A DNA stretch of 64,000 nt from an uncultured virus (IMG/VR IMGVR_UViG_3300027782_003691) (IMGVR_UViG_3300027782_003691); one strand, 5' to 3'; numbered from the stretch's first letter, positions 34,541-50,844 are shown. Notes: generated by a model not told the origin, from the letters alone. A program made the numbers and translations.

Positions 34541-34615
34541 TGGTCCGGCCAGCAGGAATCGAACCCACAATAAGGGAGTAGAAATCCCTAGTTATATCCA
34601 TTTAACTATGGCCGG
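34541..34615 (-). tRNA. tRNA-Arg(TCT)
   Basis: AGGGA-TT TCT AC-TCCCT, GGATA D-loop, CCA. Confidence 0.9.
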
Positions 34616-34699
34616 ATTATTATATTGAAACACACTCTGGCTACGTCCGATAAGACCTAGCGTTGGCATGCCTACTTAAATGTGCTTCAATATAATAAT
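34616..34699 (-). ncRNA. conserved-stem hairpin element H1
   Basis: ATTATTATATTGAAGCACAT.../...GTGTGTTTCAATATAATAAT; G-U pairs only on minus strand. Confidence 0.65.
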
Positions 34700-34700
34700 A

Positions 34701-34775
34701 TGGTGTGACCGGAGAATTTCGAAATCTCGACCTTGGCGTTAAAAGCACCCTGCTCTTCCTCTGAGCTACGATCAC
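34701..34775 (-). tRNA. tRNA-Lys(TTT)
   Basis: CT-TTT-AA, CCA. Confidence 0.92.
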
Positions 34776-34783
34776 ATTAAACT

Positions 34784-34812
34784 ATTATAGTTGAACTTCA
34801 ATTAATTGTCAA
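34784..34812 (-). promoter_or_regulatory. sigma70-type promoter
   Basis: TTGACA-17-TATAAT. Confidence 0.8.
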
Positions 34813-34813
34813 C

Positions 34814-34890
34814 TGGGGTGTAGGACGGAATTTGAATCCGCATAGGCAAGATCCACAATCTTGGGCTTTACCGATTAAGCTACCTACACC
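34814..34890 (-). tRNA. tRNA-His(GTG)
   Basis: TT-GTG-GA, G-1/C73, CCA. Confidence 0.93.
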
Positions 34891-34896
34891 ATTGAT

Positions 34897-34972
34897 TGGT
34901 CCACCCTCCTGGTTACGCTCCAGACTATCCAGTTCTTCAAACTGGCGCTTTCACTAGATTAGCTTAGGGTGG
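34897..34972 (-). tRNA. tRNA-Phe(GAA), atypical D/T loops
   Basis: CCAGT-TT GAA GA-ACTGG; T-loop AGCGTAA; D-loop lacks GG. Confidence 0.85.
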
Positions 34973-35014
34973 TAATTTAAAAACTTAATGACATTATAAC
35001 ATATAAGTAGTAGC

Positions 35015-36550
35015 ATGGCTAATATTATAATTTTTGCTGATACCACAGCCGATGATATAGTTTTTCAACCAAGTCATCCAAAACTGGGGAGACGTTCTCC
35101 AAGTAAATCTATCGGTGCATATCGAGTAGCAACTGAAATAAGAAAAGTAGGATTTACTTGTCAAGTAATACAATTAGTTACAGCATTTACTTCGGAAGAA
35201 CTATCACAGGCATGCAACAAATTTATTGGCTCGGATACTGTGGCAATTGCTTTTAGCACATCGTTTTGGCTTAGGGTTCGTTTTAAGGTTATAGGAAATC
35301 TTGTTTCACATATTATTAGTCAAGCCAAACATATAAACAACAATATTCAAATACTATTTGGTGGGCCAAACGGTGTAGATTTATTGGAGAGTGTTAAAAA
35401 TGTAGACGCTGTATTTTTAGGATATAGTGAAAAACAATTTACCGACTACATAGTATCTATACGTGATAAAACTACAATACCTGTACCCACAAGAAAACAA
35501 GATAACACGTTAATATATGATGTAACTGCATCAGATAAAACATTTAACTTTTGTCGTTGCCAAATTATATACCAACCAGAAGATTGCGTTGATCCTGGCG
35601 AATCAATTACGCTAGAAGTGAGTAGGGGTTGTATTTTTAAATGCAAGTTTTGTGCCTATCCATTGAATGGTAAGAAAAAATTAGATTTTATTAAAGATTA
35701 TGATGTACTGACCGAAGAGTTAATATACAATTATGAAAATTTTGGAATTTATAAATATCTGATAAGTGATGATACGTTCAATGATAGTAATGAAAAATTA
35801 GCACATCTACATAAAATTTTTACTTCGTTGCCATTTAAAATTTATTTTGCATGTTATCTCAGACTTGATCTATTACATGCACATAGAGATCAAGTTAGGT
35901 TGTTAAAAGAAATGGGGCTGCGTGGTTGTCATTTTGGAGTAGAATCATTTCATGATCGGGCTGCAAGTTCGATAGGTAAAGGACTTGGTGGGGTTAAATC
36001 TAAAAAATTTTTGCAAGAATTAAAAAATGAATTATGGGGCGATGACGTCAAGATTAGCATTAGCGTAATAACTGGGTTACCGCACGAAACCTATGAATCA
36101 TATATGGAAACTAAGCAATGGATTTTGGATCCCAACAATCTAGTGGATGGGGTTCGCATCTTTCCATTATTGTTGGTTAATCCGATACATGATAATTTAC
36201 CATATAAGAGTGAGTTTCAACTAAATGCCTCAAAATACGGATATTATTGGCCTGATCCAAAACAACCACGAATATGGAAAAATTTATCTAGTCCAATCAA
36301 ACATTACAGTGAAGCAGAATCTCTAGCTCACGAATTAACGGAAGCAGCGCGGTCCGTGAACAGAGGAGAATTTGGCGGGTTTGATTTTCTCTTGACAGAT
36401 TCCATGGTAAAATATTTCGATGATCCTCAGCCATTAGAAGAACAATTTAAAATGAATAGATCTGAATATATGATGTGGGTAGATAGAAATTACAAAAAAG
36501 CCACAGTTGATTATGTGCAAAATTATATCAATTCAATATTAAATTTATAA
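35015..36550 (+). CDS. B12-binding-domain-like (class B-type) radical SAM protein
   Basis: FGGPN, EVSRGCIFKCKFC, DDTFND, GVES, GLPHET. Confidence 0.88.
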   Translation: MANIIIFADTTADDIVFQPSHPKLGRRSPSKSIGAYRVATEIRKVGFTCQVIQLVTAFTSEELSQACNKFIGSDTVAIAFSTSFWLRVRFKVIGNLVSHIISQAKHINNNIQILFGGPNGVDLLESVKNVDAVFLGYSEKQFTDYIVSIRDKTTIPVPTRKQDNTLIYDVTASDKTFNFCRCQIIYQPEDCVDPGESITLEVSRGCIFKCKFCAYPLNGKKKLDFIKDYDVLTEELIYNYENFGIYKYLISDDTFNDSNEKLAHLHKIFTSLPFKIYFACYLRLDLLHAHRDQVRLLKEMGLRGCHFGVESFHDRAASSIGKGLGGVKSKKFLQELKNELWGDDVKISISVITGLPHETYESYMETKQWILDPNNLVDGVRIFPLLLVNPIHDNLPYKSEFQLNASKYGYYWPDPKQPRIWKNLSSPIKHYSEAESLAHELTEAARSVNRGEFGGFDFLLTDSMVKYFDDPQPLEEQFKMNRSEYMMWVDRNYKKATVDYVQNYINSILNL

Positions 36551-36626
36551 TGGTAGGGGGTACCGGGTTCGAACCGATGACATTCTGCGTGTAAGGCAGA
36601 CGCTCTACCAACTGAGCTAACCCCCT
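36551..36626 (-). tRNA. tRNA-Val(TAC)
   Basis: CT-TAC-AC, CCA. Confidence 0.95.
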
Positions 36627-36632
36627 AATATG

Positions 36633-36708
36633 TGGCAGGAGATACAGGGTTCGAACCTGTGTATGACGGAATCAAAATCCGTTGCCTTACCAGCTTGGCT
36701 AATCTCCA
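36633..36708 (-). tRNA. tRNA-Gln(TTG)
   Basis: TT-TTG-AT, CCA. Confidence 0.93.
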
Positions 36709-36714
36709 ACTGAA

Positions 36715-36969
36715 CTATCTATATTTTTTACTTTGTTTTTTTGCCTGTACTGATTCGATCTTCATCAAATACTCTTTGGCATCAACACGCCCTTCTTGGA
36801 TATCCAGCAGAACTTCTGACAACCGTGTAATTTTATCTGTGCCCAATCTATGGAATCGTAACTCCCGCATTTTGGCCGCAGCGATCAACACCAAGTCATA
36901 ACGCTTATTGCCGACTTGTTCACAGCAAAGGTTGACATCGATAAGACTGGCTACTGTTTTGACTGACAT
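36715..36969 (-). CDS. rpoZ: RNA polymerase omega subunit-like protein
   Basis: CCEQVGNKRYDLVLIAAAKMREL...VLLDIQEGRV resembles omega conserved regions. Confidence 0.7.
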   Translation of the reverse strand: MSVKTVASLIDVNLCCEQVGNKRYDLVLIAAAKMRELRFHRLGTDKITRLSEVLLDIQEGRVDAKEYLMKIESVQAKKQSKKYR

Positions 36970-36997
36970 ATATTTCCTAAAGTTGAACTAAGTTAAT

Positions 36998-37074
36998 TGG
37001 TCGGAGATGTAGGATTCGAACCTACGGTTTTCTGCTCCCAAAGCAGACGGATTACCAGACTTTCCCAATCTCCG
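36998..37074 (-). tRNA. tRNA-Pro(TGG)
   Basis: TT-TGG-GA, C1-G72, CCA. Confidence 0.93.
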
Positions 37075-37095
37075 ATAGAGTTGTAAAACTATTTC

Positions 37096-37293
37096 CTACC
37101 TACAAACACGAACATTATAATACTGTCTGGTGTATCCATTCCACTGCGTTACATAAGAACAACGAACAGGTGGTGCCACATATACAGGCCTAGGTTGAAC
37201 ATACACCGGCCTTGTCTGAACATAATATGGATCAGCAACAATACAACCAGTAAGTACTAATGACGCCACACCAATTGCTAAAACTGCTTTCAT
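37096..37293 (-). CDS. small lipoprotein with Pro/Val/Tyr repeats
   Basis: Signal peptide with lipobox LTGC; RPVYV x2; AGGAG SD. Confidence 0.75.
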   Translation of the reverse strand: MKAVLAIGVASLVLTGCIVADPYYVQTRPVYVQPRPVYVAPPVRCSYVTQWNGYTRQYYNVRVCR

Positions 37294-37313
37294 GTCAACT
37301 CCTTGTTATAAAA

Positions 37314-37392
37314 TGGTAGCGGAGGAAGGATTTGAACCAACGATCTCTAGCTTATGAGACTAGCGGGGACGACCAGACTCCCCTACTCCGCA
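37314..37392 (-). tRNA. initiator-like tRNA-fMet(CAT), atypical
   Basis: U1xU72 mismatch, CT-CAT-AA; lacks three G-C anticodon pairs, two T-stem mismatches. Confidence 0.8.
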
Positions 37393-37411
37393 ACAGGCTT
37401 ACTATACAAAC

Positions 37412-37440
37412 ATTATATATTGTATTGTATTTAATGTCAA
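37412..37440 (-). promoter_or_regulatory. sigma70-type promoter
   Basis: TTGACA-17-TATAAT. Confidence 0.8.
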
Positions 37441-37445
37441 TTAAT

Positions 37446-37521
37446 TGGTGGAGGATAACGGGATCGAACCGTTGACCTACTGGTTGCAAACCAGTCGCTC
37501 TCCCAGCTGAGCTAATCCCCC
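37446..37521 (-). tRNA. tRNA-Ala(TGC)
   Basis: TT-TGC-AA, G3-U70, CCA. Confidence 0.95.
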
Positions 37522-37535
37522 ATTGGTCCATCAAC

Positions 37536-37682
37536 ATTATTTGGTGAACAAGCTGTTATCACTGCCACGCCCAGTTCATTCGGCAGGGGTACGTCATGAT
37601 GACGATTGTACGTTCACTGACGGTTAGGAAAGGTAACCCGTGTGCATTTAACACTGCTCAAACAACTTGTTCACTTAATAAT
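37536..37682 (-). ncRNA. unclassified structured RNA (~147 nt)
   Basis: ~22-bp closing stem ATTATTAAGTGAACAAGTTGTT/AACAGCTTGTTCACCAAATAAT between two tRNAs. Confidence 0.55.
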
Positions 37683-37684
37683 AC

Positions 37685-37760
37685 TGGAGCGGGTGATCGG
37701 GTTCGAACCGACGACAATCACGTTGGCAACGTGGCGCTCTACCAGCTGAGCTACACCCGC
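37685..37760 (-). tRNA. tRNA-Gly(GCC)
   Basis: TT-GCC-AA, U73, CCA. Confidence 0.95.
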
Positions 37761-37769
37761 ATAACTTGT

Positions 37770-37892
37770 TTAATGAAACAGGTAAAGTATAAAACTCAAT
37801 ACGATCAATCCACTTAAAAACTTAATTGATGTATGATGAAATTCTCTAACTGCTTCTGGTTCTGTTTGGTATTCAATTATATATTCTTTCAT
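37770..37892 (-). CDS. small membrane peptide (40 aa)
   Basis: MKEYIIEYQ...SGLIVLSFILYLFH; track start lies within a tRNA. Confidence 0.45.
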   Translation of the reverse strand: MKEYIIEYQTEPEAVREFHHTSIKFLSGLIVLSFILYLFH

Positions 37893-37913
37893 AATGGTTG
37901 CACTCTTATAAAA

Positions 37914-37987
37914 TGGAGCAGGGTAGGAGAATCGAACTCCTTTGACCAGCTTGGAAGGCTGGGACACAACCAATATGCCAACCCTGC
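37914..37987 (-). tRNA. tRNA-Gly(TCC)
   Basis: CT-TCC-AA, CCA. Confidence 0.93.
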
Positions 37988-37989
37988 TT

Positions 37990-38074
37990 TGGTGCGAAAG
38001 GAGGGACTTGAACCCTCAATCCATAAGGCGCAAGATTTTAAGTCTTGTGTGTATACCAATTCCACCACTCTCGC
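37990..38074 (-). tRNA. tRNA-Leu(TAA)
   Basis: CT-TAA-AA, long variable arm, CCA. Confidence 0.93.
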
Positions 38075-38082
38075 ATGTTACT

Positions 38083-38111
38083 ATTATATAGTGCTTTACT
38101 ATTACTGTCAA
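38083..38111 (-). promoter_or_regulatory. sigma70-type promoter
   Basis: TTGACA-17-TATAAT. Confidence 0.8.
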
Positions 38112-39056
38112 CTATTTTGACACTATCTTGGGATTATATTTGTTAAGAAAAATATCCCCGGGACACACACAACTAGGTCTAGGACAAGTCAAATACTCAT
38201 CAAGCAAATTAAAATTTGAAATAGTCCCTAATAGTCTAGCATTACAAATTCCTGCTCTAACTTCACCGTTGGCGTATACACATATACCTTCACTACCCGC
38301 AGCACACCGCCAGTTATGAAAATAATGTAAACCTTCTGCCATAATTGTATTGGGAACAGCACGATTAATATCGCCATTCGAATAAACTGCCTTAACGTCC
38401 CATGCTATATTTGAATCTAGTTTGGTGGGGTAGCTTTTAATAAAATCTAATTGCTCGGATGTATATGAATACATATCTCTGTTAAACGTGTCTTGATCCT
38501 GTATAACTTTTGGAATGATAAATGGTTTGAATCTAACATCAACGTCATTAACTATTTCCATTACCGTATCCCACATACCCGGATGGCACATAAGATTAAA
38601 CTGTATATCCACTCCATTGTCTTTTAAAAATTCGCATAGTTGATTGATTTTTAATTTTTTGGAGTCATAGTATTCTGGATGCAATGACAAAATTACTAGT
38701 TGTGGTTGTTTGGACAATGATTGCCACCAGCTGACGCTTCTAGCACCATTTGTTGTAACGGTAATAGTAGCGTAATCATGTAGGCGTTCAATTATGTCTG
38801 CGAATTTATTATGTAAGGTAGGTTCACCACCTGATATATTAACCACCAATCTCTTTTTAGTCTGTTGTTGTATAGCGATTAGCTTATCGAGAAACAAATC
38901 AATGTCACTATCACTCGGAAATAGAGGGCTATTTGCATATGCTCCAAGATTTAATGATGAGGGACAGTATGTACAATGCTGATTACAAAAATCAGTCAAT
39001 ATCCAATAGACAAATATCTCATTGTTTAAATTTTTAATCTCTATTAATTCTTTCAT
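38112..39056 (-). CDS. radical SAM protein with C-terminal Cys-rich domain (paralog of 4414/5367 pair)
   Basis: CNQHCTYC, SGGEP, C-terminal CPRPSCVC. Confidence 0.88.
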   Translation of the reverse strand: MKELIEIKNLNNEIFVYWILTDFCNQHCTYCPSSLNLGAYANSPLFPSDSDIDLFLDKLIAIQQQTKKRLVVNISGGEPTLHNKFADIIERLHDYATITVTTNGARSVSWWQSLSKQPQLVILSLHPEYYDSKKLKINQLCEFLKDNGVDIQFNLMCHPGMWDTVMEIVNDVDVRFKPFIIPKVIQDQDTFNRDMYSYTSEQLDFIKSYPTKLDSNIAWDVKAVYSNGDINRAVPNTIMAEGLHYFHNWRCAAGSEGICVYANGEVRAGICNARLLGTISNFNLLDEYLTCPRPSCVCPGDIFLNKYNPKIVSK

Positions 39057-39069
39057 ACTATCCTGTGTT

Positions 39070-39153
39070 TGGTGGGCTAGGAGAGACTCGAACTCTCACG
39101 CCTTTCGGCAATGGCTTCTAAGACCATCATGGCTACCGTTACATCACCAGCCC
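39070..39153 (-). tRNA. tRNA-Leu(TAG)
   Basis: CT-TAG-AA, variable arm GCC-GAAA-GGC, CCA. Confidence 0.92.
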
Positions 39154-39154
39154 A

Positions 39155-39616
39155 TTACTCATTTACTTCCATCCAAGAGTGATCTCCTAGATAACGAACC
39201 TGTATCAAATATTCATAATTTTCTGGAACGCCACTAGTCCAATCGGTTGGTGACATGGCGGTTAGTATAGTTACATCATTGCGTGTATCTTTAACTACCC
39301 AATATACATGACCCATGCTTAATTGAAACTCATATTTACAACTGTGTACTAAGTCAGTCATGTCTAATCGACGCTTAATATCTCCTGCTTGTCTTTCTAA
39401 TACTGCTACTAGTTCCATTATTCTATCATATTCTTGTTGGGCAAACAAGCGGGCATTATTAATCATAATGTCTTTTTGTTGCGTAACTGGAACTAGATCA
39501 AACTTAGTACCACCAGCCTCAGTGGGGTAAGGCGTCACATTACGATTAAAGAACGGCACTACGGTGTTACCCATAGTACTGTCATAACTCTTACGACCTT
39601 TTGTGATGTTACTCAT
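39155..39616 (-). CDS. hypothetical protein (DUF2452-like)
   Basis: PYPTEAG.KF...GHVYW...SPTDW...DHSW pattern. Confidence 0.6.
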   Translation of the reverse strand: MSNITKGRKSYDSTMGNTVVPFFNRNVTPYPTEAGGTKFDLVPVTQQKDIMINNARLFAQQEYDRIMELVAVLERQAGDIKRRLDMTDLVHSCKYEFQLSMGHVYWVVKDTRNDVTILTAMSPTDWTSGVPENYEYLIQVRYLGDHSWMEVNE

Positions 39617-39854
39617 TGGCTGCCTTTAAACAATATATTAGATATTCTTGTTCGGTTATCCATATCCATTTTGAGTACTGAGTATCACCATATCCAACCC
39701 ACTGCTGATATCTACGCCCCCACCGTAACCATATTACGCAGTTACTTTGAGTACACCGATGTGGTAACCAAGCAAAACACTTATCATAAACTGGAAATCG
39801 GGGCATCCACACATCTTCTTGCATGGTGGGATACATACTACGATCTAATGGCAT
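39609..39854 (-). CDS. hypothetical protein
   Basis: FAWLPHRC...IWL...EYLIYCLK. Confidence 0.55.
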   Translation of the reverse strand: MPLDRSMYPTMQEDVWMPRFPVYDKCFAWLPHRCTQSNCVIWLRWGRRYQQWVGYGDTQYSKWIWITEQEYLIYCLKAANE

Positions 39855-40324
39855 TATTCGTTAACCACTTTCAAACTTTTAAATCTGTCAGCAGCATAAC
39901 TAGCAGCAAAACCATGCGGTTTAACACGAGGTTCTACATTACAAGTACCACGAATGTATCCAATCGCTTGCGCTACTACATTACTACTTTTGAATTCGTC
40001 ATCAGGATTAATATCAAGGTGCACCTCCACCACACGATTTTCCAGAACTTCTGCTAGTTTAAGATACAGTTCACTTACCTTAAACACTTCAGTCATTAGC
40101 CTAGTGTTAGGTTTGTCAACACGATCATAATCTCTTTCACGAGTTACCTCGCCAAACAGCTTACACCCATGTTTTCCATCTAAGTGAACAACGATAGCCG
40201 CCGTATAGTCAGCATACCACTGCGTACCTTTTTTAACTCGTTCTGAGTCAACACCAATATAAATTTTAGTGTCGGGACCTTGTTTATCTATGAACTCTTT
40301 GATTTGTGGTATGTTGAACTTCAT
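39854..40324 (-). CDS. RNase H-like YkuK (DUF458) family protein
   Basis: IYIGVDS, RLMTEV, EVHLDIN, KP..FAASYAAD. Confidence 0.82.
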   Translation of the reverse strand: MKFNIPQIKEFIDKQGPDTKIYIGVDSERVKKGTQWYADYTAAIVVHLDGKHGCKLFGEVTRERDYDRVDKPNTRLMTEVFKVSELYLKLAEVLENRVVEVHLDINPDDEFKSSNVVAQAIGYIRGTCNVEPRVKPHGFAASYAADRFKSLKVVNE

Positions 40325-40344
40325 TACGACCTCTTTGGTTATTT

Positions 40345-40419
40345 TGGCATCCCCCGAAGGATTTGAACCCTCACCAGCTGATTTGGAGTCAGATGTGCTG
40401 CCGTTGACACTAGGGAGAT
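40345..40419 (-). tRNA. tRNA-Trp(CCA)
   Basis: CT-CCA-AA, G73, CCA. Confidence 0.92.
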
Positions 40420-40439
40420 ATATTACTACTATTTACTGT

Positions 40440-40516
40440 TGGTGCCTCGACCAAGATTTGAACTTGGGACTTCCACCTTATCAAGATGGCACTCTGACCA
40501 ACTGAGTTATCGAGGC
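40440..40516 (-). tRNA. tRNA-Ile(GAT)
   Basis: TT-GAT-AA, CCA. Confidence 0.93.
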
Positions 40517-40523
40517 ATTTCAT

Positions 40524-40600
40524 TGGTGCGTCCGGAGAGATTTGAACTCCCAACCTCAAGTTTCGAAGACTTGCTTTCTATCCAGTTGAATTACGGACAC
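40524..40600 (-). tRNA. tRNA-Arg(TCG)
   Basis: CT-TCG-AA, GGATA D-loop, CCA. Confidence 0.92.
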
Positions 40601-40606
40601 AATATT

Positions 40607-40701
40607 TGGTACTCCTGGGTGGATTCGAACCACCGACGCTCCCTAATCTGGGGACATATGCCGGGTATAAGCCGGGTGTTTTACCGCTAAACTACAGGAG
40701 C
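40607..40701 (-). tRNA. tRNA with TAT anticodon (Ile-type) and long variable region
   Basis: CCGG-CT TAT AC-CCGG; ~25-nt variable region; canonical T arm; CCA. Confidence 0.8.
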
Positions 40702-40708
40702 AAATCTT

Positions 40709-40803
40709 TGGCAGTGAGTGTGGGATTTGAACCCACGGACCCTGGGGTTACCAGAGTCAACACCTTAGCAGGGTGCCGATTTAAGCCACTCATCCAACTC
40801 ACT
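40709..40803 (-). tRNA. tRNA-Ser(GCT)
   Basis: CT-GCT-AA, long variable arm, G73. Confidence 0.93.
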
Positions 40804-40812
40804 TTAAAACTT

Positions 40813-40905
40813 TGGCGAGTAGCAGAGGAGTCGAACCCCATCCCCATTACAGAGAACCCAGTTTTCAAGGCTGGTCGCAGGACCAACCCCGCTGCATTAC
40901 TACTC
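40813..40905 (-). tRNA. tRNA-Ser(TGA), 8/4 cloverleaf
   Basis: 8-bp acceptor GAGTAGTA/TGCTACTC, 4-bp T stem GGGG/CCTC, CT-TGA-AA. Confidence 0.88.
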
Positions 40906-40913
40906 TTTAAAAC

Positions 40914-40988
40914 TGGTACTGCATACGGGTTACGATCCCGTCTGGTCACCTTGAAAGGGTGATGACCTCACCAGAAGTCGAATGCAGC
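40914..40988 (-). tRNA. tRNA-Glu(TTC)
   Basis: CT-TTC-AA; T-loop ATCGTAA; CCA. Confidence 0.9.
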
Positions 40989-40994
40989 ATTACT

Positions 40995-41078
40995 TGGTGG
41001 AGGTGGTAGGGATCGAACCTACCTGCACAAGTGCCAGAGATTTACAGTCTCCTGTCCCACCGTTGGAACATCACCTCC
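40995..41078 (-). tRNA. tRNA-Tyr(GTA)
   Basis: CT-GTA-AA, variable arm, CCA. Confidence 0.92.
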
Positions 41079-41089
41079 GTTGATTTTTA

Positions 41090-42565
41090 CTAAGTGTACT
41101 TCTTAACTGTAAGTATAGCACGGTCTCGGGCTACTTGTCTACCGCGACCATCTAATTTTAATTGATCTCGTGTTTTATGTTCAATATCGAAATCCGATTC
41201 TCCATTGTGCCACGCTGAGCCAATTAGCCAGCCACCACACCGAACAACTCCGGCCGAGTCTTTGAGTAATTTGAATGCTGCATCAAATGCCTGCTCAGAT
41301 GTCATAAATTCATTCTTCCATGCACTATTTTCGCCTGGCTTTCGATCAACAGTATAACCATATTTTTCTGGATCACGTTCCAGGGCACTCATTAATGTTG
41401 TTTCTTTTTCAATGTCATTATAAGTATAGATTCCAAGGGCACTAAACTGCCAGGTTCTAAATAAGTTTGGATTATTTTTACAAAACTCGGCTGTTTTAAA
41501 TGAATCATCTATTGTGTCGCCCGGCAGTCCTACAATAAAGCCTGCACTTAATTTAACTTGATTACTACCGCTAGTTAACATATTAAGTGCATGTAGAACC
41601 TTCTCAATGTTCATTCCTTTATTCATAACTTTTCTAGCATGGTTGTTCATGCTTTCTATTCCAACAAATCCACCTACTAGCCCCATTCGCAACAACTGCG
41701 GAATCATTTCGGGTTTGGTTACTAGTAACTCTGGTTTAAGATAACATTGAAATTCAAAGTTGGGTATCTTTGCTAATTCTATGGCTCGCTCAAGTCTATT
41801 TAACTTCTCCACACTATCATTGAATGTATCATCCATCAATGAATATCTGGTAGTACCAAACAATTCATAATTGCGACGAAGTTCGTTGCTTATGCTTTCA
41901 GGAGTTCTCATGTAAGATTCGTAATCTTTTGCTCCTTGAAACGGATGAGTACAGTACGCACATCTAAAAATACACCCCCTGCTGGCTTCCAATGGTATTG
42001 GTTGATGACTAAGAAAGTTATCTTCTGGTTTTAATACAGTTTCTATATCATCTGGATTTGCGATATGATGGAATTTATTACTATCCACCGTTTTTTTGCC
42101 ATTGCTGTCAATAAAATACTTTAACTGATGTCCTGTCTTGCCTTCTAATAACATTAGAAATCTAGGAAAACTGTCATCGCTAAATCCACCAATATGCCAA
42201 TCTGCTGCGTCATAAAGACCACGAGCACCTGGCATTCGTAATATACCATTACCACCTGCGACAATTTTTAATTTTGGATGTTTGGCACGAATTCTATTAA
42301 AAAAATCTTCGTTAATCCATTCAATGTCGGCATGTCCATTATGTGGACGATCTAGCCAAACTGTGCTGACGCCCAAAAATAATGTTTTATCTGTAATAAC
42401 GTTGCTGAGTACTAGTTCTAGTTCTGCTTCCGTCATTGCAGTAGCACAATCAATAACTAAGTTATTGTATCCGAATTTTTCAGCAGCGGTACGTAATCTA
42501 TATCCAGCAATATTTCTACCGGAAAGGTCGTTTCTACTGCCACATAAAATTATTCCATGATACAT
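41090..42565 (-). CDS. B12-binding-domain-like radical SAM protein (paralog of 35015-36550)
   Basis: EASRGCIFRCAYC, DDTFND, GIES, GLPGDT. Confidence 0.88.
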   Translation of the reverse strand: MYHGIILCGSRNDLSGRNIAGYRLRTAAEKFGYNNLVIDCATAMTEAELELVLSNVITDKTLFLGVSTVWLDRPHNGHADIEWINEDFFNRIRAKHPKLKIVAGGNGILRMPGARGLYDAADWHIGGFSDDSFPRFLMLLEGKTGHQLKYFIDSNGKKTVDSNKFHHIANPDDIETVLKPEDNFLSHQPIPLEASRGCIFRCAYCTHPFQGAKDYESYMRTPESISNELRRNYELFGTTRYSLMDDTFNDSVEKLNRLERAIELAKIPNFEFQCYLKPELLVTKPEMIPQLLRMGLVGGFVGIESMNNHARKVMNKGMNIEKVLHALNMLTSGSNQVKLSAGFIVGLPGDTIDDSFKTAEFCKNNPNLFRTWQFSALGIYTYNDIEKETTLMSALERDPEKYGYTVDRKPGENSAWKNEFMTSEQAFDAAFKLLKDSAGVVRCGGWLIGSAWHNGESDFDIEHKTRDQLKLDGRGRQVARDRAILTVKKYT

Positions 42566-42586
42566 AATAGTTTTATTTATGACAGT

Positions 42587-43036
42587 TTAAATCCATTCAA
42601 TTGTTCTGTAATAATCTAAACTTATGCCTTTTTTAATAGTGGCTTTGATCATTTGGTGATTCTTTGTGGAGACTATACTTCCGATTGAAAGCCCACCACG
42701 TTTTTTAATTGTTTTAATTAAGTAGTTGTGACAGATTTGATAAAATCCTTTCCCGCGAAATTCTGGCGCAGTAAATCCCAACATAATCCAACCTTCTTTC
42801 CTATCGTCGATATATTCATATACCTGTCCGGTTACGACTTCGGAGTGTGAATTCTCAATCCAAATTACACCACTGCCATTTCTAAATGGCATTCCAGGTA
42901 AGGCCATACCACTTTGCAAAATTTCAAGATAACATTCAAACATTAACTCAAGTGGTGGCACAGCGACTAATGTATCGCTGTGCCATACTGTTAACTCGTC
43001 GTCATCTTTTACAATCGTGTCTATTATTTGTTTCAT
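42587..43036 (-). CDS. GNAT family acetyltransferase
   Basis: TAPEFRGKGF acetyl-CoA-binding motif. Confidence 0.75.
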   Translation of the reverse strand: MKQIIDTIVKDDDELTVWHSDTLVAVPPLELMFECYLEILQSGMALPGMPFRNGSGVIWIENSHSEVVTGQVYEYIDDRKEGWIMLGFTAPEFRGKGFYQICHNYLIKTIKKRGGLSIGSIVSTKNHQMIKATIKKGISLDYYRTIEWI

Positions 43037-43055
43037 ATATTACCTTATGTAAACT

Positions 43056-43133
43056 TGGCCCTCGTCCTGTGGATTCTAACCACAGCTTAAAGTGTAGTCA
43101 AACACCCGACCATAACACTGGATCTCAACGAGG
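43056..43133 (-). tRNA. tRNA-like RNA, anticodon indeterminate
   Basis: CCTCGTT/GACGAGG acceptor + GCCA, 6-bp T stem with TTAGAAT loop, irregular anticodon loop (TTGACT). Confidence 0.6.
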
Positions 43134-43140
43134 ATAACTT

Positions 43141-43218
43141 TGGCGACCAATATGGGTAACGATCCCATCGATATCCCGCGTGACAGGCGGGCGACCACAC
43201 CATGCAGTCCCATTGGCC
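43141..43218 (-). tRNA. tRNA-Asp(GTC)
   Basis: CCCGC-CT GTC AC-GCGGG; T-loop ATCGTTA; G73. Confidence 0.9.
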
Positions 43219-43228
43219 TAATTCTTTA

Positions 43229-43337
43229 TTACCATATTGAAATATATTAAATCTCTTGCACCGTCAAACGCAACTTCGCCCAGTTGACGCTGGACCGCCT
43301 TCTTCTTGTTGGCGTTTAATACACTTCAATATGGTAA
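43229..43337 (-). ncRNA. conserved-stem hairpin element H2
   Basis: TTACCATATTGAAGTGTATTAAA/TTTAATATATTTCAATATGGTAA. Confidence 0.65.
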
Positions 43338-43384
43338 CAGTCCATCCAAGCAAGGGCGTGTGACCATTGCACTTGGACAGGGTT

Positions 43385-43457
43385 ACCATATTGAAATACA
43401 CTCCGCTCGTTTCCTGGTTTATCAAATTTATACCACCAGAATGTACTTCAATATGGT
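43385..43457 (-). ncRNA. conserved-stem hairpin element H3
   Basis: ACCATATTGAAGTACATTCTG/CGGAGTGTATTTCAATATGGT. Confidence 0.65.
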
Positions 43458-43668
43458 GTAGGCTACCGAATCCCTTCGGCCCCTACCGGAGTTGTCTACC
43501 CTGTCCGTCTGATTATTCTCTATGAGTATGGGCATGTTCAGCAACACCCTACGATTTTTTCAGGCTCCCGACAGAGGGACTCTAAGGTAGATCGTAAGCA
43601 CCCTTAACTTTATCGTGGAGTTAATTCACGCCCTGTTAATAACGGCTAGGGACGCCGGGATTCCTATA
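43454..43668 (-). ncRNA. unclassified structured RNA ending in ACCA (~215 nt)
   Basis: GC-rich, ORF-free, several nested stems, TAGG/CCTA closing stem then CACCA. Confidence 0.5.
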
Positions 43669-43703
43669 AGTGAATGCTATCTGCTATTATACTATAGCCA
43701 CCA

Positions 43704-43916
43704 TTGTCATTAGTTGTATTGTCTCGTTATGGACAACAATAACCCTATTGTCGTTTGCTTTTATCGCTGAACTCTTATACAAGGGCATTGGCCAATGCTG
43801 ATCTTGCTTTCGTTTCAGGCAACAGTTTAGATCGCGCTAGCTAGACGGAGGATCCATCGCCTGTGCATTTTCCAAGTGAACACTGGAATTTTCCAAAACA
43901 ATACAACTAATAACAA
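43704..43916 (-). ncRNA. unclassified structured RNA (~213 nt)
   Basis: ~23-bp closing stem TTGTTATTAGTTGTATTGTTTTG/CGAGACAATACAACTAATGACAA. Confidence 0.55.
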
Positions 43917-43917
43917 C

Positions 43918-44170
43918 TAAGTGCTTTCTCCCTGCGGCGGTAACTATAGCATAGAGAAGTTGACTAACTATGCCTTCCATCCGCTTCACCGACCAAGGAG
44001 AACTCTCGTGTGCAAACGCCGGTTAGGTTAGACCGCAGCTTTCGCTGGAGCAGATTCTTCATCTCCGTTACCAGAGGTAGACCCTTGCTCGAACCACCCG
44101 TAGCCATCACAGCTACTTCATCGTCTGGGCTCAGACTAGGCACTGATTAGGTTGCCGTGGACTTTTTGCT
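43918..44170 (-). ncRNA. unclassified structured RNA (~250 nt) with GNRA-capped hairpins
   Basis: CTCTG-GTAA-CGGAG, CAGC-GAAA-GCTG, GTAGC/GCTAC, GTCTG/CAGAC, GCATAG/CTATGC. Confidence 0.55.
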
Positions 44171-44171
44171 T

Positions 44172-44261
44172 ACGCAATATTGAAGTGTATTACACGATAT
44201 GACCTCTGCAATGCTATTGCTAATTCGGGACTAGTTCGTGTAATACACTTCAATATTGCGT
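44172..44261 (-). ncRNA. conserved-stem hairpin element H4
   Basis: Perfect 26-bp inverted repeat ACGCAATATTGAAGTGTATTACACGA. Confidence 0.7.
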
Positions 44262-44265
44262 CTGT

Positions 44266-44278
44266 TTTTTAAAGAACG
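44266..44278 (-). promoter_or_regulatory. boxA-like antitermination site
   Basis: CGTTCTTTAAAAA just downstream of a promoter; compare rrn boxA TGCTCTTTAACA. Confidence 0.55.
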
Positions 44279-44304
44279 TTTACTGCATTTCTTACTATAC
44301 AAAC

Positions 44305-44333
44305 ATTATAGCTGTAGTTGAATTAACTGTCAA
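44305..44333 (-). promoter_or_regulatory. sigma70-type promoter
   Basis: TTGACA-17-TATAAT. Confidence 0.8.
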
Positions 44334-44356
44334 CTACTGTGCTAAAATACAACAAT

Positions 44357-44434
44357 TGGAGGTGAGGGTCGGAGTCGAACCGACGGTTTTCCGGATTTGC
44401 AATCCAGTGCAATGGACCACTCTGCCACCTCACC
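44357..44434 (-). tRNA. tRNA-Cys(GCA)
   Basis: TT-GCA-AA, U73, CCA. Confidence 0.93.
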
Positions 44435-46097: not shown

Positions 46098-46490
46098 GCT
46101 ATTTTCTGTTACTAGGTATAACTACCCTACGCCAGTGATTAAACTGCGAAAGTTTCGGCTTTCACTGAACCACGAGCAGAGAAACGAATTCCTTTGCCAG
46201 CTGATACAGTTACTTCGCCTTTAGATGCGTTTGCGTCTAGGTTTTTTGCTTGATTTGCGGTCATCGCCTACCGTGTAGATCTCCTTGATACTAATCACCC
46301 CGTCGAATCTAAGTCGGGCCCATTAGGAAGAACTCTCTTGTCGTTCATAACATACACCTAGCTGTTTATGTATATTACTAATTCCACTAGCTTACAGATC
46401 ACTAGGGAGAGTTCTTTCTGGTGGACCCGGGGAGGCTCTGCCCCTCCCGTCCGAAGCACCTTTCTCTTAAAGCATTAAACTACAATTCTA
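46098..46490 (-). ncRNA. ssrA: circularly permuted two-piece tmRNA (acceptor piece ~46490-46419, intervening segment, coding piece 46321-~46098)
   Basis: GGGCCCG...GATTCGAC 5' end; upstream GGAC-T arm-CGGGTCC-ACCA; G3-U70; tag frame 46234-46139 ANASKGEVTVSAGKGIRFSARGSVKAETFAV*. Confidence 0.9.
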
Positions 46491-47233
46491 TTTTGTGGCA
46501 TACTCTTCCTTAGTCTACCACTACTAAACCCATTATTTAAGTATTCCTGCTTTTTACTTAAATCTATAAAATGTTCTTTGATACCATTATTTACCCAACA
46601 TTCCTTGGCAAGGTGTCCTTTTTTACCTCTAACCCAACCTTCTGGAATAATATCACTTATTCTAATACGTTTCACTTCCTTTGTCAATATATTAGATATC
46701 CATATTCTCCCAAACTGCGAATTTTTTTCACCTTGACTATGTCCTATTTTTAAAAATGTAGTTTTTCGTTTAGCTTTTGCTTCTGGCGTAGTTGCTTTTT
46801 GTCCTATCGTTTTCATTCTATCAGGAGCCCTTGACCATTCTACTGTTTTTTGAAACTCAGGATCTTTAAATGGATTATTAGATCTACTAGCACTTTTCTT
46901 TCCACCTAATCTAGATTTTTCAAGATGTTCATCACTACCATTCCAGTGATCCCATCCTCCGAGGCCACCTTTGTGCATATTGTAAGTATCGTGTCTTTTC
47001 ACAAAATCTTCTGTAACGATTTCTGCTTCTTTGACGGCCATTTCTTCCAATGAAGAGCAATAGTATAAGACTTCTTTATTAAAGTTTTCTATGCCATATT
47101 TTTGTATGGCAGACATTATCTGTTTGCCGGATCCATAATATCCGTTTATAGATGGATGTAGTGATGATTTATGTTTTCCGACATAAATCTTACCATTCGT
47201 TAAATTAGTGATTTGGTAGATATAATAATACAT
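46475..47233 (-). mobile_element. free-standing GIY-YIG (Seg-like) homing endonuclease gene
   Basis: YIYQITN..NGKIYVGKH...YYGSG...E...YN; C-terminal NUMOD-like repeats (GEKNSQFG, W.NNG, G...GR). Confidence 0.88.
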
Positions 47234-48146: not shown

Positions 48147-48356
48147 TTAAAACTTACCGCCCGACAGTTTAATCTCAATAACCTCTTCTTTTTGGGGCTG
48201 CAATGCTGATTCCTTTAGAGTCCTAAGCTCTAACAGTAATTCAGTCAAATCAGCCGCCATTCCCTTGGCATCTTTCATGGGCATGACAAAATCTTTGCCT
48301 CCCCTTGCATCGTTCCCACGTACCCGTTCAATGAACTTTTGTAAGTGTATACTCAA
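48147..48356 (-). CDS. hypothetical protein
   Basis: Coupled 69-aa ORF. Confidence 0.6.
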   Translation of the reverse strand: MSIHLQKFIERVRGNDARGGKDFVMPMKDAKGMAADLTELLLELRTLKESALQPQKEEVIEIKLSGGKF

Positions 48357-48727
48357 TGTTCTCTCTTTAGGAAGTTTTTCAGATTAGGTGGAGTCCAACC
48401 TTCTGGCTTGAGAATTTTTCCATCCTCCCTGCGGCGAACCTTACCCAACTGACGATCAATTTTAGAAAGATTTGACGCCATCACTTCACGCCATGCGCCT
48501 TCACCATCGGCACCCATACTATTGATAGCACCAATGGTAACTACTAAAATATCTACTAGTGCATCAAGCGTTTCTACTGGATCACCAGCAGCGATAGCTT
48601 CTGATAGTTCGGTATATTCTTCTGTAATTAAATTACAATACATCTTAAACTGCTCATCATTCATGCCTGTGATGGTTTGCTCACATGCTGTCATGAATTT
48701 GTCTTGATCGTGAAATGGATTGGTCAT
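48353..48727 (-). CDS. MazG-like/PRA-PH nucleotide pyrophosphohydrolase
   Basis: LITEEYTEL...LDALVD...SNLSK...DGKILKP. Confidence 0.85.
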   Translation of the reverse strand: MTNPFHDQDKFMTACEQTITGMNDEQFKMYCNLITEEYTELSEAIAAGDPVETLDALVDILVVTIGAINSMGADGEGAWREVMASNLSKIDRQLGKVRRREDGKILKPEGWTPPNLKNFLKREH

Positions 48728-48728
48728 T

Positions 48729-48956
48729 TTAATTTTCCTGTGGTAATTTGTAAGTAACTCGTTGTGTGTTAGTGGCACCAGTCATTGGAGATGTCAATTC
48801 AGGTAATGTTCCGCCTAACTCTAATACTTGTTTTCTTAATTCTGTAATTTCTTGTAAGGCTGCTATGTACAATGTTTCCCATGGTGGTCCATAGTTGACA
48901 GCATTTTCTAGTACAGCAACTATGTCTTGATCTCGTATGTTCTTTACTGTATTCAT
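48729..48956 (-). CDS. hypothetical protein
   Basis: Coupled 75-aa ORF. Confidence 0.55.
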   Translation of the reverse strand: MNTVKNIRDQDIVAVLENAVNYGPPWETLYIAALQEITELRKQVLELGGTLPELTSPMTGATNTQRVTYKLPQEN

Positions 48957-49399
48957 TTAGGTTCTGCCTCTTGTTTAGTATGATATGGTCCCTGATAAGG
49001 GTATCGTTTGAGAACGATTAGTTTAGGATCTTGTTCAGCTGTCCAATGGCGACCTTTCTTAACGGTATACCAACCGGCAGCATACCAGCTTTTACTTTTC
49101 TTTTGTTTGTTGTACACGGGTAACTTATGCTGTACGTCCCACATGGGATTATGTACTCGACCTGCTGCTTGATAACCATGTACTATGTTTGAAGTTTTCT
49201 TTTCTGGCTTGGGTATGGTTTCAAAAGTAACATTGATATTGCGTTCAACTAATTTGATAGTTTTATATTGCGCTACTACTTGATTATTAATTTTAACCTG
49301 ATATCCGCCATCACATGCTTCGATATTGCCGATCTTGTTGTTATCTTGTTGCAAGATCCAAAATTGTTTGTCTATTACAGGTTTGGCAATTAAACTCAT
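48953..49399 (-). CDS. hypothetical protein
   Basis: Coupled 148-aa ORF. Confidence 0.65.
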   Translation of the reverse strand: MSLIAKPVIDKQFWILQQDNNKIGNIEACDGGYQVKINNQVVAQYKTIKLVERNINVTFETIPKPEKKTSNIVHGYQAAGRVHNPMWDVQHKLPVYNKQKKSKSWYAAGWYTVKKGRHWTAEQDPKLIVLKRYPYQGPYHTKQEAEPK

Positions 49400-49605
49400 T
49401 CTCCATCTCCGTCTTTATATAGAGATAATTCTGATTCAAACCAAAGTCCAAAATCTTCGGCATTTGCGGCTACATACATATGGGTATCTGGTGAGTGCTT
49501 TGTAAGATCATACACTACCTCTGTTATTGTAAAAGTTTCAGTAACCCATGGTACTCTTACTACATCTCCTACTTTATATTTTGATTCTCTAATATTATCT
49601 TTCAT
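49396..49605 (-). CDS. hypothetical protein (SH3/YorP-like)
   Basis: SKYKVGDVVRV...WFESEL. Confidence 0.55.
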   Translation of the reverse strand: MKDNIRESKYKVGDVVRVPWVTETFTITEVVYDLTKHSPDTHMYVAANAEDFGLWFESELSLYKDGDGE

Positions 49606-49793
49606 TACTTTATCCTCTTTTTACATTCTTCCATTACTGCTATTGGAAAATCTGGATGCCAGTTTCCCTGCAACATACGGCAATCATATGTTATCGTAAC
49701 ACGATCTTTATCTTGTTTTGCTAGTATAAAAGTTAACGATATTACAAATAACGCTATAATAAGTGTCCCTATACCAAACAAAAAATTAAGCAT
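49605..49793 (-). CDS. small membrane protein
   Basis: N-terminal hydrophobic helix; YDC...HPDFP...C. Confidence 0.6.
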   Translation of the reverse strand: MLNFLFGIGTLIIALFVISLTFILAKQDKDRVTITYDCRMLQGNWHPDFPIAVMEECKKRIK

Positions 49794-50787
49794 TTAATAT
49801 TCCACTATAAGTTTTATTCATCCAACTGCCAAATGCTTCGGCATTTTCACTACATTTAACTAATTCGTATTTCCCACAAAACTGTAAGAAACGTACTCCT
49901 ACTTGACCCACATCCTTGTGACTAACCTGTTCCTTGATACTGGTATCAATAGTCAGCTTAACATCTTCGGGTTGTGCAGTCAAGTCAACTAATGTTACAT
50001 TACGATTGTAGTCATCCAGCACACGATGTTCTGCACCATCTGGATCAGTCCAACGTTGTAACATCATGTTGTTCCAAGCGTATCCTTTTTTGCCACGGTC
50101 CTCGAATGCTTCCGTAAGTCCAATCTTCTTCTTAGTACCATTAACTCGTACTCCCGGGTATGCTGAGAAGATGTTATCCGTTGAATCGCCGCGCATACAC
50201 TTTTCGAAGAGTAGCCACTGCGGTTTAGCTGGCGGCTTAGGTTCTTTAGTTTTCTTATCGATAACAATTTTTCCTTTATCATTAAAGGTTCCTTCAAGGG
50301 TGATTAGTTCGTCGGTTATACCGTTATATTGTTTGACATTGGGTGCTACTAACTGAACGAAGTCGGTATCACTACTGATAATGACATGTTCATCTTCAGG
50401 GTGTAATGCTATCCAGCGAGCTATAATATCATCGCCTTCTGCGGTGGGACATCGTATAACACTACAATTGGTCTTCTCGCCCAAGTATTTAGTTAATGCA
50501 TCATACGTTTCCCAGAACATTTTATCCTCGTCGGATTCCTGCTCTGTGAGTGCTTGTTTAGCCACTGCACGGTTAGCTTTATAGGGCTTATAAAAGTCCT
50601 TGCGCCAGCTACGCCCCTCTAGGGCAAAAACTACATGGTCAGCTTCAAAGCGGCGTGCCATTTTATTAGCAGCCATTAGTGTGACGTGTAGGGCGAATCC
50701 TACCTTTTCCCAAGTGTCGCCCGCACGGAAAGCACCATGCCTAGCACGAAAGAAAAGGTTAGCTGTGTCGATAAGAATATATTTCAT
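49786..50787 (-). CDS. rnh: T4 RNase H-like 5'-3' exonuclease (FEN family)
   Basis: ILIDTAN, SWRKDFY..YK.NR, EGDDII, SSDTDF.QL, GDSTDNI. Confidence 0.9.
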   Translation of the reverse strand: MKYILIDTANLFFRARHGAFRAGDTWEKVGFALHVTLMAANKMARRFEADHVVFALEGRSWRKDFYKPYKANRAVAKQALTEQESDEDKMFWETYDALTKYLGEKTNCSVIRCPTAEGDDIIARWIALHPEDEHVIISSDTDFVQLVAPNVKQYNGITDELITLEGTFNDKGKIVIDKKTKEPKPPAKPQWLLFEKCMRGDSTDNIFSAYPGVRVNGTKKKIGLTEAFEDRGKKGYAWNNMMLQRWTDPDGAEHRVLDDYNRNVTLVDLTAQPEDVKLTIDTSIKEQVSHKDVGQVGVRFLQFCGKYELVKCSENAEAFGSWMNKTYSGILNA

Positions 50788-50792
50788 ATGTT

Positions 50793-50821: not shown

Positions 50822-50844
50822 ACTACATTTAGAATTAGTTGATA

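Follow-up and report, generated by a model that had tools for sequence, protein, structure and literature searches.

Phage tRNA arrays are usually viewed as sets of transfer RNA (tRNA) genes for codon supply or counter-defence. A 64,000-nucleotide (nt) stretch of DNA from an uncultured virus (IMG/VR IMGVR_UViG_3300027782_003691), the whole of which is hereafter called the window, raises the question of what else such an array can encode: between positions 34,616 and 44,261, four hairpins with one conserved stem and different loops are dispersed among the tRNA genes. As a fragment of a large uncultured phage, the window has as its closest record a 59.7-kb viral contig estimated to be 17% complete, and the DNA sequencing runs that contain at least half of it are freshwater metagenomes, some of them possibly the source sample. 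An earlier note on this DNA had proposed that the hairpins are cassette-like small RNAs, with a constant stem for processing or protein binding and a variable cargo serving as antisense guide or decoy, and had named mimicry of CRISPR RNA (crRNA) as an alternative. Judged from sequence comparisons, the hairpins belong to a large and apparently undescribed family of small RNA genes located among the tRNA genes of uncultured freshwater phages.

Four hairpins in the window share a stem and lie on the tRNA strand

A repeat search of the window detected four inverted repeats, H1 to H4, at exactly the positions reported in the earlier note. All four are family hairpins read from the minus strand. H1 (34616..34699) has 19-nt arms (34616-34634 and 34681-34699) that are 95% complementary, H2 (43229..43337) has 23-nt arms (43229-43251 and 43315-43337; 91%), H3 (43385..43457) has 26-nt arms (43385-43410 and 43432-43457; 81%), and H4 (44172..44261) has 26-nt arms (44172-44197 and 44236-44261) that are 100% complementary and form a perfect 26-bp stem. 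The 13-nt core ATATTGAARYRYA occurs in eight exact copies in the 64-kb window, and these are the eight arms. With up to one mismatch allowed, 11 matches were observed compared to 3.5 ± 2.0 in shuffled sequences, and none of 100 shuffles reached 11. The loops, referred to here as cargos, are mutually unrelated: H1 encloses a conserved cargo type with two inner hairpins (34637-34678), and the cargos of H2 (43249-43317), H3 (43403-43439), and H4 (44192-44241) measure 69, 37, and 50 nt, respectively. Their G+C content (0.43–0.52) exceeds that of the window (0.38).

Minus-strand RNAs of H1 to H4 are predicted to fold with free energies of −34.3, −42.6, −31.4, and −42.4 kcal/mol (z-scores of −7.0 to −9.7). 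The plus-strand folds are weaker for H1 to H3 (−23.2, −31.7, and −17.6 kcal/mol), and the perfect H4 folds similarly on either strand. There are four arm mismatches, one in H1, two in H2, and one in H3, and all of them read G.U on the minus strand and A.C on the plus strand. The basic observations of the earlier note, i.e., four hairpins with a conserved minus-strand stem, unrelated and GC-richer inserts, and variation that takes the form of G-U pairs, were therefore all reproduced.

The hairpins are tightly packed among tRNA genes. ARAGORN predicts 25 tRNA genes in the window, 25/25 on the minus strand. H1 occupies the entire gap from tRNA-Lys(UUU) (34701..34775), directly on its 5′ side, to tRNA-Arg(UCU) (34541..34615), directly on its 3′ side; H2 ends 10 nt before the start of tRNA-Asp(GUC) (43141..43218). 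H4 is the first element past a perfect sigma-70-type promoter (TTGACA-17-TATAAT, 12/12 matches; 44305..44333), with 43 nt between the two. A second perfect promoter (34784..34812; 12/12) precedes tRNA-Lys, H1, tRNA-Arg, and tRNA-Met, and two more (12/12 each) lie at 38083-38111 and 37412-37440. Thus four such promoters occur on the minus strand within 10 kb of tRNA array, two of them inside a 46-nt repeat; their sequences point to a host with a standard sigma-70 rather than a Bacteroidota-type promoter. No open reading frames (ORFs) of note were found between tRNA-Asp and tRNA-Cys in the window.

The hairpins belong to a large family that appears confined to phages

We searched IMG/VR contigs with the pattern ATATTGAARYRYA-N(40-70)-TRYRYTTCAATAT and found at least 127 matching loci. 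Among the matches listed, there are 155 distinct hairpins, which form the basis of the family statistics below, and 110 of the 127 loci contain tRNAs. Five phage records of 214–400 kb, four of them at least 92% complete, carry 1, 1, 1, 1, and 3 copies. The same pattern was applied to one genome per species for 185,579 bacterial and archaeal species (596 billion bases) and yielded 11 loci. Five are true members on metagenome-assembled contigs rich in tRNA genes, most likely mis-binned phage DNA, and the remaining six are chance look-alikes without tRNAs or the flanking consensus. The chance rate is therefore tiny, and on these counts the family appears to be confined to phages.

Known families did not account for the hairpins. 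The Rfam search called for in the earlier note found no Rfam 15 family at the gathering score on any hairpin of the window or in 20 further loci. At E-values of 1–10, only chance-level microRNA (miRNA) and small nucleolar RNA models matched hairpins (20–31 bits compared to gathering scores of 65–86), and a permissive search of five further loci gave no match on the hairpins. BLAST of the H2-H4 region, an 81-nt member, and an adjacent 190-nt RNA against 50,697 deposited phage records returned only tRNA and chance matches; BLAST cannot find a lone 15–18-nt arm, and so it does not establish absence of the family from cultured phages. A literature search found no description of the hairpin family, and searching for the letters of the motif returned primer matches only.

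The conserved unit is a helix with a fixed wobble

The family stem reads 5′-ACC-AUAUUGAA-RYRY-AUU...AGU-RYRY-UUCAAUAU-GGU-3′, a nearly invariant helix of ~18–20 bp. For counts of stem positions, genomic positions, and cargos, five of the 155 hairpins that could not be oriented were dropped, leaving 150, of which 148 have full flanks. Conservation extends to the positions left free by the search pattern: position 14 is U.G in 124/148 hairpins and position 15 is U-A in 143/148, and the flanks add a first C-G pair (126/148), a second C-G pair (109/148), and a third that is A-U in 86/148 and G.U in 24/148. Position 9 is G.U in 74 hairpins, A-U in 51, G-C in 21, and A.C in 2. Positions 10–12 covary, with 3, 0, and 0 mismatches. 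The stems are perfect or wobble-only helices without bulges, and the ACC...GGU flanks are complementary, extending the helix, rather than direct duplications.

A looser finder, which allowed one mismatch in the 8-bp core and left positions 9–15 free, was applied to 80 further loci. The arms that it returned were again mostly RYRYAUU, and variants of the 8-bp core were matched by changes in the partner arm, e.g., ATATTAAA with TTTAATAT, which was seen four times; this finder demands 14 of 15 pairs and is hence biased towards compensated forms. Since free positions are conserved and core variants are compensated, the conserved unit is a helix with a fixed wobble rather than two independent motifs.

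Three observations indicate on which strand this helix is read. Departures from Watson-Crick pairing within the outer 15 pairs, counted over all 155 hairpins, comprise 247 G.U and 6 A.C, the hairpins being oriented to the strand where mismatches read G.U. Every orientable hairpin with a tRNA in its locus (122/122) lies on the same strand as the nearest tRNA; 20 more have no tRNA in the locus and 13 were not orientable. The tRNA T-arm motif, a marker independent of the wobble, is present in sense orientation in 11 cargos of the 150 hairpins, and no cargo has it in antisense orientation. On this sequence record the family is best read as RNA from the tRNA strand, consistent with the selection on minus-strand RNA that the earlier note had suspected.

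The hairpins do not systematically carry transcription signals of their own. A consensus-like promoter was found within 120 nt upstream of 9/140 hairpins and downstream of 7/140, and a U-tract (at least four consecutive T within 12 nt of the stem) accompanies 17/150 hairpins, representing 8/106 cargo groups; thus neither is enriched. Intrinsic terminators were rejected as an identity for the family given the scarcity of U-tracts, and none of H1 to H4 is terminator-like.

Cargos are highly diverse and some are conserved

Cargo length in the 150 hairpins ranges from 27 to 130 nt, with a median of 51 nt, and loops across the family span 3 to ~130 nt when short-loop forms are included. The 150 cargos fall into 106 groups without detectable mutual similarity, the largest having 13, 6, 5, and 4 members. 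Some cargos are nevertheless clearly under selection, as judged from their alignments. The H1-type cargo is represented by 11 sequences from divergent contexts, in which the two inner hairpins are kept and 96% of alignment cells are paired. Compensatory changes affect 16 of its pairs, compared to 7.3 ± 1.6 in shuffles, and 0/500 shuffles reached 16; slid controls gave 1–5 compensated pairs. Likewise, an 81-nt cargo type is kept in 13 contigs and is enclosed by the sole copy in three jumbo-phage records.

A subset of the cargos resembles tRNAs. A T-arm common to phage tRNAs is present in the sense direction in 13/106 cargo groups, and 11/150 cargos end in a T-arm located 0–9 nt from the 3′ arm. 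Several are predicted to fold as cloverleaf-like multi-branch loops with the T-arm abutting the 3′ arm, and in these models the constant stem would stand in for an extended acceptor stem. Such a module is found neither in H1 to H4 nor in most of the family, about a tenth of the cargos being tRNA-like. The notion that cargos are antisense guides found no support: the longest match of a window cargo elsewhere in the window is 11 nt, and weak antisense similarity to phage tRNAs was detected in only 2/106 groups.

Cargos are exchanged between slots and phages

We compared the array of the window with those of relatives whose RNase H-like array proteins are 73–100% identical to that of the window; individual loci are given here by their L numbers. 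Among these close relatives, the interval from tRNA-Cys to tRNA-Asp contains 0 to 6 family hairpins. At the slot following the promoter, occupied by H4 in the window, the flanks are 94–100% identical in the window, L178, and L179; the enclosed cargos are 50, 78, and 81 nt long, respectively, and at 48–60% identity are unrelated. L179 contains a copy of the H4 cargo (92% identity) before tRNA-Asp, in the slot where the window has the H2 cargo; around that slot, the flanks bear no relation to those of H4 (56–62%). L180 carries the H2 cargo in the H2 slot, and in L010 the H3 arms enclose a different, tRNA-like cargo. Given that near-identical flanks enclose unrelated cargos and that the same cargo occurs in another slot, the exchange boundaries lie inside the conserved arms. 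The aligned arrays thereby document swapping of cargos among slots and phages and, together with the 106 unrelated groups, agree with the cassette-like organization proposed in the earlier note. The shared arms would provide portable homology for this exchange, which may proceed by general recombination on ~15 bp of homology or by a site-specific process.

A proposed double-stranded handle for exchangeable small RNAs

We favor, with about as much doubt as confidence, the explanation that the stem is a standard handle of double-stranded RNA that supports processing, stability, and recognition by proteins, and that it displays exchangeable small-RNA modules co-transcribed with tRNAs. H1 to H4 would be transcribed along with the tRNAs from the sigma-70-type promoters, each small RNA being closed by the near-invariant helix with its conserved U.G at position 14 and frequent G.U at position 9. 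RNase P, by cleaving the next tRNA, would free the small RNA on its 3′ side, and the long perfect helix would shield its ends. The helix may also serve as a recognition or cleavage site for a double-strand-specific factor, either host RNase III or a sequence-specific protein. The cargo would be the working part, delivered as a stable stem-closed small RNA: some cargos are conserved structured modules, and the tenth or so that are tRNA-like, with a T-arm possibly stacked on the handle, suggest decoys or mimics. The shared arms would, in addition, make the payloads exchangeable.

Precedents exist for parts of this arrangement. RNase III stalks are helices formed from the sequences flanking bacterial 16S and 23S rRNA, and cutting them releases the enclosed RNA; RNase III also cuts sites in the early RNA of phage T7. 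The family resembles these stalks in having a helix of ~20 bp or more formed from both flanks of a stable RNA in a polycistronic, tRNA-containing precursor: ~18–20 bp are conserved (up to 26 bp in H4), and consensus promoters precede the tRNA operons that contain the hairpins. It is plausible that such a perfect, near-invariant helix has an RNase III-like role or binds a protein. In contrast to the stalks, the family helix is near-invariant across divergent phages, has a fixed U.G, encloses more than 100 unrelated cargos, and is known here from sequence. Non-tRNA structured RNAs that are probably co-transcribed with tRNAs are also familiar from phage tRNA clusters, i.e., GOLLD, ROOL, and the stable “species 1 and 2” RNAs of the T4 tRNA cluster. 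Each of these is a single conserved fold, whereas the family combines a constant stem with interchangeable interiors. GOLLD (RF02032) itself is present in two related tRNA arrays with family hairpins, namely L235 (9765-10226; 207 bits) and L219 (12140-12599; 191 bits); in L235, two tRNAs come next, and four family hairpins after them.

With respect to shuffling, the closest likeness is to the promoter-early stem-loop (PeSL) cassettes of T4-type phages, short conserved repeats with a stem-loop in variable regions, where recombination between repeats is described as shuffling the flanked modules among close phages (PMC2839356). As described there, PeSL elements consist of a promoter and a terminator around protein genes, whereas the two family arms form one RNA helix around a non-coding cargo, bear an RNA wobble signature, lie among tRNAs, and mostly lack a U-tract (present in 17/150) or adjacent promoter (9/140).

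We searched for proteins that might read or process the handle. The ORF content of 34 hairpin-positive tRNA arrays was compared with that of 46 hairpin-negative arrays, and the only enriched frames were those over non-coding RNA and small ORFs of close relatives. The most regular protein resident is a PF04308 RNase H-like (YkuK-type) protein, encoded at 39854-40324 on the minus strand in the window. Its relatives occur in at least 588 viral loci, and 73/80 of those examined have at least five tRNAs within 8 kb; it may be an RNA-processing enzyme of tRNA arrays. It is encoded 3–6 kb from the hairpin in four of the five hairpin-bearing genomes and is one candidate reader of the handle. Only 34/80 PF04308 loci contain a family hairpin and one complete hairpin-bearing genome lacks PF04308, and so no specific link between the two is established.

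Several points weigh against the handle explanation. No partner protein emerged among Rsr and RNase III (0/5 hairpin-bearing phage genomes each) or from the ORF enrichment across 80 arrays. RNase III requires no particular sequence, and so this enzyme alone leaves the near-invariance of the stem unexplained; a sequence-specific reader is therefore called for. When considered without the stem, cargos hardly exceed shuffles in stability (mean z-score −0.44, 10% below −2, no difference between strands), and a good number of them could be loose loops or neutral filler. Hairpins with loops of only 3–10 nt occur, showing that a stem need not carry a cargo. Folded single-stranded DNA likewise accepts G.T pairs, and therefore the wobble signature alone leaves room for a role at the DNA level. 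Finally, the case for processing and protein recognition of the handle is built from sequence.

If the handle explanation is correct, the tRNA arrays of many uncultured freshwater phages, jumbo phages included, are also platforms for diverse, rapidly exchanged non-tRNA small RNAs. The invariant 18-bp helix with its fixed wobble would imply a specific reader that could be found by pull-down, and arms-race functions would be expected to leave just such a pattern of cargo exchange between near-identical phages. A bolder version, which we consider unlikely, is that the hairpins constitute a library of small RNA modules that recombination reshuffles and that serve, for example, as decoys, mimics, or regulators directed at hosts or rival phages. 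All modules would share a universal double-stranded handle, read by a dedicated protein for processing, loading, or delivery. This would amount to an RNA-cassette system with the logic of a CRISPR array or integron, i.e., a constant adaptor and exchangeable payloads, built inside tRNA operons. For practical purposes, hundreds of unannotated phage RNAs can be found and annotated simply by searching with the stem, which is possibly a natural scaffold for expressing stable small RNAs.

A possible role of the stem as punctuation of the tRNA operon

The handle explanation places the function in the cargo. The stem might instead be pure punctuation: a cis-acting mark for processing or insulating the tRNA operon, standing in for a tRNA, around a cargo that is drifting, shuffled filler. 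In this role, it would separate neighbouring RNAs or prevent their misfolding. We regard this idea as doubtful, at a level similar to the library proposal. Its appeal lies partly in genomic position. A tRNA starts within 25 nt downstream of 49/150 hairpins, involving 16 anticodons, and a tRNA ends within 25 nt upstream of 11/150, eight of these being tRNA-Lys(UUU) before an H1-type cargo. Within the window, however, a hairpin lies directly upstream of only 2/25 tRNAs, and so tRNA maturation needs no hairpin.

A second line of evidence comes from a candidate structured RNA of ~190 nt located directly 3′ of H4 on the RNA strand (43960..44168, minus strand), with the invariant core ACGGGTGGTTCGAGCAAG. 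Among 17 loci in viral contigs, 15 are relatives of this RNA; compensatory changes are seen in 18 of its 42 predicted pairs, and two covarying hairpins are capped by GNRA loops. It had no Rfam match, even at permissive thresholds. A family hairpin lies within 600 nt on either side in 12 of the 15 true loci. In one clade, the RNA is preceded by a hairpin, and in other phages by a tRNA 3′ end instead; in five loci (L158, L159, L166, L170, and L171), a family hairpin follows it. As either a hairpin or a tRNA end precedes this RNA, the hairpin takes a slot of the kind that a tRNA occupies, which fits a processing or punctuation role. Contigs from four RNA-library runs cover pieces of 43500-44372, and those of two runs span 43940-44151, ending at ~44150, ~20 nt from H4. 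Contigs of this kind cannot show ends, strand, or transcription, and their end is at most a weak hint of an RNA end near H4. They are absent from H2 and H3, which counts neither for nor against expression.

Short-loop hairpins bear on the question in both directions. L152, L153, and L154 are plain stems with 3–10-nt loops in tRNA arrays, as expected of punctuation; similar short-loop stems in L147 and L150 have no tRNA within 400 nt on each side. Such forms are rare, with loops of 30 nt or less in eight loci compared to at least 127 loci with loops of 40–70 nt. The low structural stability of cargos taken alone would suit filler, but divergent phages have kept several of the cargo types, with compensatory changes, and 11 cargos present a sense T-arm that abuts the stem. 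These features speak against pure punctuation.

Less probable readings: DNA elements, tRNA mimics, and crRNA mimics

A rather improbable alternative is that the family acts as DNA, i.e., a folded single strand or cruciform used for recombination or mobility in the manner of attC sites, the ends of miniature inverted-repeat transposable elements (MITEs), or hairpin-transposase substrates, with the cargo being what is moved. The precision of cargo exchange inside the arms, the recurrence of one cargo in two slots, and the variation from 0 to 6 hairpins between tRNA-Cys and tRNA-Asp among close relatives would all be expected of such an element, as would the tolerance of G.T pairs. One study also describes RNA and single-stranded DNA motifs as hard to separate by sequence alone (PMC5737381). 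Against this, integrase, transposase, and recombinase domains were found in 0/74 ORFs of the window, and the commonest neighbours in the at least 127 loci, among the matches listed, are a phosphoesterase, a deaminase, and the RNase H-like protein. The five phage records carry just 1–3 copies each, the family is almost only found among tRNA genes and always on their strand, and the ACC/GGU flanks lengthen the helix. Moreover, the sense T-arms and covarying inner helices of the cargos, as read from the alignments, argue for RNA function.

Two specific DNA elements were considered and rejected. A match to a MITE or a repetitive extragenic palindromic (REP) element, which the earlier note had named as grounds for abandoning its proposal, was not found: copy number is low (1, 1, 1, 1, and 3), there are no direct target duplications, and the interiors fall into 106 unrelated groups. 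Integron attC sites share with the family an imperfect inverted-repeat form, strand specificity, conserved ends, a variable centre of comparable length, and an association with cassette exchange. The family differs from them in lacking an integrase (recombinase domains, 0/74 window ORFs), RYYYAAC/GTTRRRY boxes, and extrahelical bases in its bulge-free stems. It also exchanges the unit inside the hairpin, is present in 1–6 copies per genome, and lies among tRNAs.

Slightly less probable still is that the hairpins mainly act as Y-RNA-like or tRNA-mimic decoys. The handle would then bind a Ro/Rsr-like or other tRNA-interacting protein, and a tRNA-like cargo would recruit or distract tRNA enzymes or anticodon nucleases. 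Bacterial Y RNAs (YrlA, RF02553) occur in phages too, and their layout, a stem joining the 5′ and 3′ ends as a protein handle plus a tRNA-like module, is matched by the 11/150 cargos that end in a T-arm close to the 3′ arm and by the several cloverleaf-like folds. This layout does not extend to the roughly nine-tenths of cargos that are not tRNA-like, and the family stem is different and lacks a bulge. YrlA bound by Rsr was rejected as an identity: matches to the Rfam YrlA model are weak and located on true tRNAs rather than on family hairpins, and the TROVE/Rsr domain (PF05731) was found in 0/5 hairpin-bearing phage records, four of them at least 90% complete, with Deinococcus and Bacteroides controls positive. 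Viral hairpin RNAs joined to tRNA-like units are also known from murine gammaherpesvirus 68, whose TMERs are pre-miRNA hairpins fused to tRNA-like units and freed by a tRNA-processing enzyme. Unlike the phage hairpins, TMERs belong to a eukaryotic virus, are Pol III transcripts with hairpins downstream of the tRNA, and enter the miRNA pathway; we know of no miRNA-type pathway for the phage hairpins.

That the arms imitate CRISPR repeat ends (ATTGAAG/A) as an RNA anti-CRISPR that titrates Cas6 or Cascade is very improbable: the only point in its favour is an apparent short resemblance to repeat ends, the arms are inverted rather than direct repeats, pair together, and covary as a helix, Rfam CRISPR repeat families were unmatched at permissive thresholds, no Cas domain was found in the 74 window ORFs, and the hairpins are linked to tRNAs rather than direct-repeat arrays.

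Other features of the tRNA array and flanking genes

The H2-H3 linker (43338..43384, minus strand) is a conserved short segment that, in alignments, lies directly before tRNA-Asp in L010 and L038, which lack H2. The pairing noticed earlier within this linker does exist. It is little informative because all family 3′ arms are complementary to all 5′ arms, with the ACC/GGU flanks extending the pairing, and the complete 1082-nt transcript is predicted to adopt the three local hairpins rather than this pairing. Neither this predicted fold nor the covariation within hairpins favours a long-range stem around the stretches that separate the hairpins. The non-coding stretch between H4 and H3 is 714 nt long and includes the ~190-nt RNA; its remainder (43458..43959, minus strand) varies among relatives. 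In L180 (~4850-4975) and L177 (~6828-6950), a small ORF of ~40 codons with a hydrophobic tail, identified by eye, replaces part of it.

Several further features of the array were observed. On the minus strand, a stem-closed multi-branch RNA candidate (37522-37684; −47 kcal/mol, z-score −2.6) occupies the space from tRNA-Gly(GCC) to tRNA-Ala(UGC) and is closed by a stem (22 nt, 86% complementary) different from that of the family. A 95-nt tRNA (40607-40701, minus strand), called tRNA-Ile with the anticodon UAU, is possibly a long-variable-arm tRNA with an isoleucine anticodon. The neighbouring tRNA-Ser is also 95 nt long, and the UAU-anticodon tRNA recurs in relatives at 92–95 nt where its span is listed. 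A permuted two-piece transfer-messenger RNA (tmRNA) gene (Rfam RF04321, 91 bits) is located at 46193-46484 on the minus strand, and the start of a GIY-YIG homing-endonuclease-like ORF (46475-47233) overlaps the tmRNA end by ~10 nt.

The regions flanking the array (445-32716 and 48353-63666) are rich in genes for 2-oxoglutarate oxygenase-like proteins, ThyX, sugar-modifying enzymes, and members of the 7-deazaguanine pathway (QueC-like, PTPS, and GTP cyclohydrolase I), together with radical SAM proteins, for which there are eight ORFs in the window. One ATPase of the window has its closest cultured relatives, at 50% identity, in the jumbo phage PA5oct and its kin.

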